Assembly (NCBI RefSeq): GCF_003334315.1
Contig: NZ_QOWR01000010.1
DNA from: Escherichia coli
Lineage (GTDB): Bacteria; Pseudomonadota; Gammaproteobacteria; Enterobacterales; Enterobacteriaceae
DNA: 64,000 nucleotides
Reading direction: 5' to 3' (one strand)
In this document: positions 62,925 to 63,057 of the stretch, one piece after another
How the letters are laid out: every line of letters starts with the position of its first letter
Numbering within the stretch: position 1 is the first letter of the stretch
Notes under the pieces: model-generated
Database searches by the model: none
The model's input: the letters and a program-made list of their open reading frames with translations, nothing else
Told to the model about the DNA's origin: nothing
Position numbers and translations under genes: made by a program

Positions 62925-62956
62925 GATGCTCTCCCAAATATGAAATCTCTTGCAGG

Positions 62957-62976
62957 CATTACAAGAATCATGCCAA
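62957..62976 (-). promoter_or_regulatory. Sigma54-type promoter element upstream of pspG
   Basis: On the minus strand, tTGGCATgattcTTGTaa approximates TGGCAC-N5-TTGC, about 35-50 nt upstream of the pspG ATG. Confidence 0.6.
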
Positions 62977-63057
62977 AAATAATCTATTGATTTAACAGCA
63001 AAACGCCCCGCGACGGTGCGCAGGGCGTGGTGAATTTGACTACTTTTTGGTGAAAAG

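Follow-up and report, generated by a model that had tools for sequence, protein, structure and literature searches.

Results

Gene order around pspG and the comparative sample

The analysed stretch of DNA, 64,000 nucleotides of an Escherichia coli contig (NZ_QOWR01000010.1 of assembly GCF_003334315.1; hereafter, the window), carries in its last 4 kb, according to the list of open reading frames (ORFs), the E. coli genes dnaB, qorA, pspG and dusA (Table 1). A 701-bp query over this region was 100% identical to many E. coli chromosomes, in which RefSeq labels dusA, pspG and qorA. The stop codon of dusA is the TAA at 63060..63058 on the minus strand and, therefore, positions 62925..63057 are exactly the 133-bp intergenic spacer between dusA and pspG. 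This spacer was found in 5426 of 5426 complete E. coli genomes; across it, a single position out of 151 distinguishes the window from K-12, at about -5 relative to the predicted transcription start (62954; T here, A in K-12). The -5 position varies freely among relatives in the 80-locus alignment, and the substitution is a neutral change, from which no functional difference from the K-12 promoter is to be expected.

For comparison, we used the 80 Enterobacteriaceae loci obtained when one genome per species was scanned with a PspG alignment. In all 80, pspG is immediately preceded by dusA in the same orientation, and the spacer between them measures 131–168 bp. Alignment of the 80 spacers (A2) and calculation of the per-column information content revealed five conserved blocks separated by variable sequence: in the order of transcription, 63055..63024; the hairpin 63028..63003 followed by a T-run; 62993..62980, reading AAATCAAnnnnTTA; 62976..62958; and 62935..62929. 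One member of the sample (L078), titled Chryseobacterium sp. 18061, carries an enterobacterial dusA–pspG locus nearly identical to that of ‘Citrobacter sp. 18056’ (L042) from the same sequencing project, and is probably a mislabelled or contaminated assembly.

Table 1. Coordinates of genes and of observed or predicted features at the pspG locus (positions in the window).
Feature	Position	Strand	Description and basis
dnaB	60035..61450	-	ORF list
qorA	ends at 62516	+	ORF list
sRNA PspH (K-12 b4758)	62515..62625	-	pspG 3′ UTR; exact K-12 match
Candidate bidirectional terminator hairpin	62524..62546	both	9-bp GC-rich hairpin, T-runs on both sides, 8 nt after qorA stop; bidirectional terminator scan
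pspG coding sequence	62682..62924	-	80 aa plus stop; ATG 62924, stop 62684..62682; ORF list, RefSeq on identical DNA
Mechanical 150-aa ORF	62682..63134	-	pspG plus 70-codon in-frame upstream run-on from a GTG inside dusA
Shine–Dalgarno sequence GGGAGAG	62929..62935	-	4 nt before ATG; sequence reading
Predicted transcription start (+1)	62949	-	12 nt after the -12 T (62961); uncertain by 1–2 nt
Sigma-54 promoter TTGGCATGATTCTTGTAAT	62958..62976	-	GG at -25/-24 (62974, 62973); GT at -13/-12 (62962, 62961)
IHF-consensus site AATCAATAGATTA	62980..62992	-	-43..-31; perfect match to WATCAANNNNTTR; binding predicted
Predicted dusA intrinsic terminator	62994..63028	-	10-bp stem ACGCCCTGCG/CGCGGGGCGT, 6-nt loop (63028..63003), then TTTTGCTGTT
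Candidate PspF upstream activating sequence TTTCACCAAAAAGTAGTCAAATTCACCACGCC	63024..63055	-	32-bp block, -106..-75; conservation and similarity to pspA
Two TTCACC (TTCRCY) repeats	63054..63049 and 63034..63029	-	inside the 32-bp block
dusA, 3′ part (tRNA dihydrouridine synthase A)	63058..63999	-	runs off the window; RefSeq annotation

PspG, its upstream run-on and the downstream neighbourhood

PspG is an inner-membrane effector of the phage-shock response. The protein encoded in the window scores 90.1 bits against the equivalog model TIGR02975 (cut-off, 53.7 bits), matching profile positions 1–63 of 64, its first 66 or so residues are strongly hydrophobic, and PF09583 is present on all listed PspG homologues. 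The model score, the RefSeq annotation and the hydropathy profile bear out the earlier note, made from the sequence alone, which had read an 80-aa membrane protein PspG here. The columns of the Shine–Dalgarno sequence are 0.68–0.96 conserved across the 80 loci, and the leader around it is variable.

According to the same note, pspG was overlapped by a long spurious ORF of 150 aa. The word ‘spurious’ appears justified; however, the ORF is not an overlapping gene but an in-frame extension, sharing the frame of pspG and starting within dusA, which is itself read in another frame. The TIGR02975 match covers residues 72–134 of the long ORF, so that the PspG family begins at its Met71. Among the 80 relatives, the stretch that is open before the pspG ATG spans 4–70 codons (47 in other Escherichia), and a frame both open and conserved in relatives, as expected of a genuine N-terminal extension, was not found. 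The extension is hydrophilic, unlike PspG, and in the 80-locus spacer alignment its region shows the pattern of regulatory blocks and not that of codons; in effect, it is the promoter, the terminator and the out-of-frame tail of dusA read as protein. As judged from these features, the 150-aa ORF is a by-product of the lack of an in-frame stop across the region and not a gene. Such run-ons have found their way into public data: three PspG calls carry N-terminal extensions that translate the promoter region (P0013, 139 aa; P0086, 105 aa; P0101, 91 aa), of which P0013 is a ‘phage shock protein G’ in JGI data with a run-on for its N-terminus. The long ORF is thus an annotation trap by which some automated pipelines have been misled.

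The view of the region as tightly packed between qor and the dusA 3′ end holds on the upstream side, where the spacer is exactly 133 bp, but not downstream, where the stop codons of pspG and qorA are 165 bp apart and the small RNA PspH lies between them. PspH, which was absent from the earlier note, adjoins pspG and forms no part of its promoter; it ends at a hairpin common with the convergent qorA, and this hairpin, with its T-runs on both sides, would serve as a bidirectional terminator for qorA and pspG/PspH. PspH is an Hfq-bound sponge of the small RNA Spot 42 and may have a promoter of its own (PMC5145812). Two Rfam ctRNA_p42d matches on the qorA/PspH hairpin reached about 20–21 bits against a gathering score of 50 and were treated as chance.

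A sigma-54 promoter in front of pspG

On the minus strand, 62975..62961 reads TGGCATGATTCTTGT, that is, TGGCAT-N5-TTGT, the sole match to TGGCAY-N5-TTGY in the window. The -24 and -12 elements and the spacing between them are those of a sigma-54 promoter, with two departures from the consensus TGGCAC-N5-TTGC, both of which replace C by T (directly after TGGCA and at -12). Taken alone, the -24/-12 motif is no rarer than chance and is not significant, given that 1.0 matches to TGGCAY-N5-TTGY are expected per 64-kb window and that 63 of 100 shuffles contained at least one; we judge the site to be real because of its position, its conservation and the published data rather than because of the motif. 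The exact TGGCAY-N5-TTGY is kept in 77 of the 80 Enterobacteriaceae loci, the remaining three being one mismatch off, and 62976..62958 reads TTGGCAYGnTTCTTGTAAT across the sample, at close to 2 bits per column. The single-base departures (TGTCAT, TTGA and TGGCGC in L036, L037 and L056, respectively; A2 columns 99–113) may reflect weakened promoters or sequencing errors. A 3-bp pairing that RNAalifold placed inside the -24/-12 box never varies and was disregarded. A promoter scan revealed no sigma-70-like site on the pspG strand within the 133-bp spacer, and an Rfam scan of 62400..63300 yielded no match in the spacer.

Published data for E. coli K-12 converge on the same site. The motif reported for pspG under the sigma-54 ChIP-seq peak OS40, TTGGCATGATTCTTGTA (PMC4591121), is letter-identical over its 17 nt to 62976..62960 of the window. 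In the same study, the pspG site is marked as experimentally confirmed in EcoCyc, its start is predicted to lie 25 nt ahead of the gene (Table 1 of PMC4591121), pspG is up-regulated upon overproduction of sigma-54, and the activator is named as PspF. Transcription of pspG needs sigma-54 RNA polymerase activated by PspF, according to PMC3068692; PspF binds the upstream activating sequences (UAS) of both pspA and pspG (PMC3709507); and, according to PMC4641871, pspG and pspA have identical -12 and -24 elements. The -24/-12 architecture that the earlier note had recognized upstream of pspG, and the PspF/sigma-54 control that it had deduced from it, are thus upheld by conservation in the case of the former and by the ChIP-seq identity and the literature in the case of the latter.

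The transcription start was predicted by the rule of PMC4591121, which places it 19 nt from the centre of the motif or, counted from the -12 T, 12 nt downstream. The predicted leader is 25 nt long, matching the distance given in that work. Across the 80 loci, 34–71 nt separate the -12 T from the ATG, and the leader varies in sequence and length. Two subspecies of Salmonella enterica, arizonae (L022) and diarizonae (L047), and Citrobacter koseri (L053) differ in that their leader, in the part from the -12 box to the Shine–Dalgarno sequence, contains an additional GC-rich, REP-like palindrome roughly 30 nt long (A2 columns 125–156), placing the sigma-54 box about 80–85 nt before the ATG.

An IHF box and a candidate enhancer

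The earlier note had suggested a search of 62980–63057 for a PspF UAS and an IHF site, and candidates for both turned up there. A perfect match to the IHF consensus occupies 62992..62980, between the enhancer-like block and the -24 box. The columns of its core (C, A ... T, T, A) are 0.88–0.99 conserved, and the exact consensus is present in only 31 of the 80 loci. IHF sites often have an A/T-rich element upstream; the T-run of the dusA terminator lies just upstream of the IHF box, at the usual place for such an element.

The candidate UAS is the 32-bp block 63055..63024, which starts 3 nt after the dusA stop codon and, although non-coding, is conserved as strongly as the promoter. Both TTCRCY repeats within it are likewise as conserved as the promoter, their 20-bp spacing is invariant (80/80 loci), and the distance from the block to the -24 GG is 56–57 bp in 78 of the 80 loci. 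In the pspF–pspA spacer of K-12 (L003), the enhancer region reads AAATTCGCCAC, then TTGTTAGTGT, then AATTCGCTAAC, with TTCGCY repeats 20 bp apart. When a position weight matrix (PWM) built from the pspG block was run on L003, the two best matches, one per strand, fell inside the pspA enhancer (59..101) and scored 17.0 and 10.2 bits; the highest score among 1000 shuffles of L003 was 9.9, and the best elsewhere in the 64-kb window was 1.5. At -106..-75, the block also fits the position (about 80–130 bp before the start) and the pspA-like character expected of an enhancer of the PspF regulon. Its similarity to the pspA enhancer and its conservation make 63055..63024 the best candidate for the UAS of PspF. 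A full-text literature search found no passage on PspF UAS I and UAS II, and the supplement of PMC3709507 gives no coordinates of regulatory deletions at pspG.

The dusA terminator

The hairpin ACGCCCTGCG-CACCGT-CGCGGGGCGT, followed by TTTTGCTGTT, was detected by a terminator scan; it contains 8 GC pairs and begins 30 nt after the dusA stop codon. When the dusA 3′ region is folded, this hairpin is the dominant structure (-21.5 kcal/mol; z -3.3). Across the 80 sequences, 97.1% of the stem cells are paired and compensatory double changes occur in 9 of the 10 pairs; none of 500 shuffles was as good, sliding the partner strand by 1–3 columns left 32–60% of cells paired, and RNAalifold independently predicted the identical helix. 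A hairpin of -8 kcal/mol or lower is retained in 77 of the 80 loci, and 6–8 T residues in the 10-nt tail in 76. G-U pairing is frequent on the sense strand (at one pair of the stem, for instance, in 38 of 80 sequences); it corresponds to A-C mismatches on the other strand and, therefore, indicates selection on the sense RNA, that is, the dusA transcript. A GC-rich hairpin with a U-run after the stop codon, its structure kept in evolution, has the hallmarks of intrinsic termination, and we identify 63028..63003 with its T-run as the predicted intrinsic terminator of dusA. The 3′-end mapping supplements of PMC7815308 contain no entries for dusA or pspG.

The enhancer-like block precedes the hairpin and the IHF site follows it; the first five bases of the hairpin's 5′ arm (63028..63024) form the 3′ edge of the block. 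The supposition in the earlier note that the dusA terminator and the pspG enhancer might overlap was, thus, essentially right: the two are interleaved and have these five bases in common.

Comparison with related sigma-54 promoters

The closest known system is the K-12 promoter of pspG (yjbO), PpspG, which represents the same locus, with 150 of 151 nt identical, the same sigma-54 motif and the same flanking genes; it differs by the one base at about -5. The orthologous site in Salmonella Typhimurium, TGGCATGATTTTTGTAAG, is bound by sigma-54 in ChIP-chip (PMC3844500).

The pspA and pspG promoters of E. coli have the same regulators and a similar layout. In both enhancers, two TTCRCY repeats are 20 bp apart with TAGT between them, but those of pspA are located 13 bp further upstream (-118 and -98, compared to -105 and -85 in pspG). 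The IHF-like box of pspA (AAATCAA...; L003 144..158) starts 19 nt before the -24 box, whereas that of pspG starts 18 nt before it. At -24, pspA has TGGCAC and pspG TGGCAT; at -12, both have TTGT instead of the consensus TTGC, as do 97% of the 80 pspG loci (62961..62964 here; L003 174..177 in pspA), and T at -12 looks like a trait common to both PspF-dependent promoters. The two promoters differ in what fills the spacer from the enhancer to the IHF box: in pspA, it belongs to the divergent pspF gene, and presumably includes the pspF promoter, whereas in pspG it holds the dusA terminator. In terms of activation, PMC3709507 assigns pspA two UAS and an induction of 100-fold, compared to a single UAS and 20-fold induction for pspG.

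Discussion

The locus described here is, almost certainly, a PspF- and sigma-54-dependent pspG promoter that shares 133 bp with the terminator of dusA, and we found no evidence against this reading. In the direction of transcription, the dusA stop codon (63060..63058) is followed by the enhancer block (63055..63024), the terminator (63028..62994; -79..-45), the IHF box (62992..62980), the -24/-12 box (62975..62961), the start near 62949, the 25-nt leader with GGGAGAG and the ATG at 62924. The finding as such is already known, since the promoter is that of K-12 pspG, from which it departs by a single neutral substitution. The control of pspG by PspF, sigma-54 and IHF was reportedly described by Lloyd et al. 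in 2004 (J Biol Chem 279:55707), who are also said to have assigned to PspA the role of negative regulator and to IHF an assisting one; with pspG control known since then, the discovery value is small.

Several other explanations of the same DNA deserve consideration. The abundance of the degenerate -24/-12 pattern, expected once per window and present in most shuffles, together with the co-directional position of dusA only 133 bp away, could be taken to mean that TGGCAT-N5-TTGT is a chance match and that pspG owes its expression to a sigma-70 promoter or to transcripts reading through from dusA. We regard this as exceedingly improbable: the box is identical, letter for letter, to a confirmed sigma-54 ChIP-seq site, it holds nearly 2 bits per column across genera next to a variable leader and persists in 77 of 80 loci, and the covarying terminator between dusA and pspG argues against read-through. 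Dependence of pspG on sigma-54 and PspF is stated in PMC3068692, in PMC3709507 and in PMC4591121, and K-12 strains mutated in rpoN or pspF have already been reported to lose induction, by which the chance-match explanation is effectively refuted. We give practically no credence to the notion that the 150-aa ORF represents a real, long isoform of PspG. The frame is indeed open in this strain and in K-12, and an upstream start is used in some public gene calls, such as that of P0013 at 139 aa. Nearly all relatives, however, have in-frame stops 4–49 codons upstream of the ATG (47 codons in other Escherichia), the family model begins at Met71, and the GTG of the long ORF is upstream of the sigma-54 start site; the extension overlaps the terminator and the promoter, and the ATG at 62924 is served by a conserved Shine–Dalgarno sequence.

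The elements upstream of the promoter could likewise be read differently. The inverted repeat 63028..63003 sits at -79..-54, where an enhancer could lie, and palindromes are bound by dimeric helix-turn-helix proteins, raising the question of whether it is a protein-bound DNA palindrome, for instance a PspF site, and not a terminator acting in RNA. At a protein-binding site, it is the sequence that would be conserved; here, by contrast, compensatory changes preserve the stem even as its sequence drifts, the loop varies freely, the sense-strand G-U pairs point to selection on the sense RNA, and a conserved T-run follows directly, all of which makes a DNA palindrome very improbable. Improbable too, if to a somewhat lesser degree, is that the block 63055..63024 functions as an RNA element of the dusA 3′ UTR, or as the site of a different DNA-binding protein, and not as the PspF enhancer. 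Binding of PspF to the block is a prediction, the block is transcribed within the dusA 3′ UTR, and a single-sequence fold does contain a small hairpin at 63058..63042. However, this hairpin, which we considered as a cause of the conservation of the upstream half of the block and rejected, displays no covariation and is no better than shuffles; the PWM of the block is specific for the pspA enhancer on both strands (17.0 and 10.2 bits, against at most 9.9 in shuffles and 1.5 in the rest of the window); the distance from block to -24 box is fixed, as expected for an enhancer facing its promoter; and PspF does bind a UAS at pspG (PMC3709507). With the block thus read as the PspF enhancer, the two TTCRCY repeats, both as well conserved as the promoter, raise the further thought that the pspG enhancer is bipartite like that of pspA, with the upstream repeat (63054..63049) as a second PspF contact. 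The analysis flags such a contact at pspG as possible, albeit unlikely; the literature counts one UAS for pspG (PMC3709507).

The regulatory events at the pspG promoter would follow the course known for the Psp system. Sigma-54 RNA polymerase would rest on the -24/-12 box as a closed complex, and PspF at the upstream site would be kept inactive by PspA until stress at the inner membrane, such as a mislocalised secretin or loss of the proton-motive force, frees it; PspF would then spend ATP to open the complex, leading to transcription of pspG. The closed complex, the hold by PspA, the release upon stress and the ATP-driven opening are established knowledge of the Psp system. Specific to this arrangement, IHF at 62992..62980 would bend the DNA such that PspF at 63055..63024 reaches the closed complex, whereas the dusA terminator, placed inside the resulting loop, would stop dusA transcripts before the core promoter and, thereby, insulate pspG from read-through. 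The terminator hairpin may double as a fixed-length spacer of the enhancer–promoter loop. For the enhancer block and the IHF box alike, the precise positions of protein contact are those predicted by similarity and conservation.

The present analysis maps the 133-bp spacer base by base and finds it fully occupied; the terminator of one gene would lie inside the enhancer loop of the next, and RNA structure and DNA spacing are both conserved across Enterobacteriaceae. Because the whole enhancer falls within the transcribed dusA 3′ UTR and the terminator would make up a fixed-length part of the loop, transcription of dusA could conceivably modulate the occupancy of the enhancer by PspF or the inducibility of pspG.
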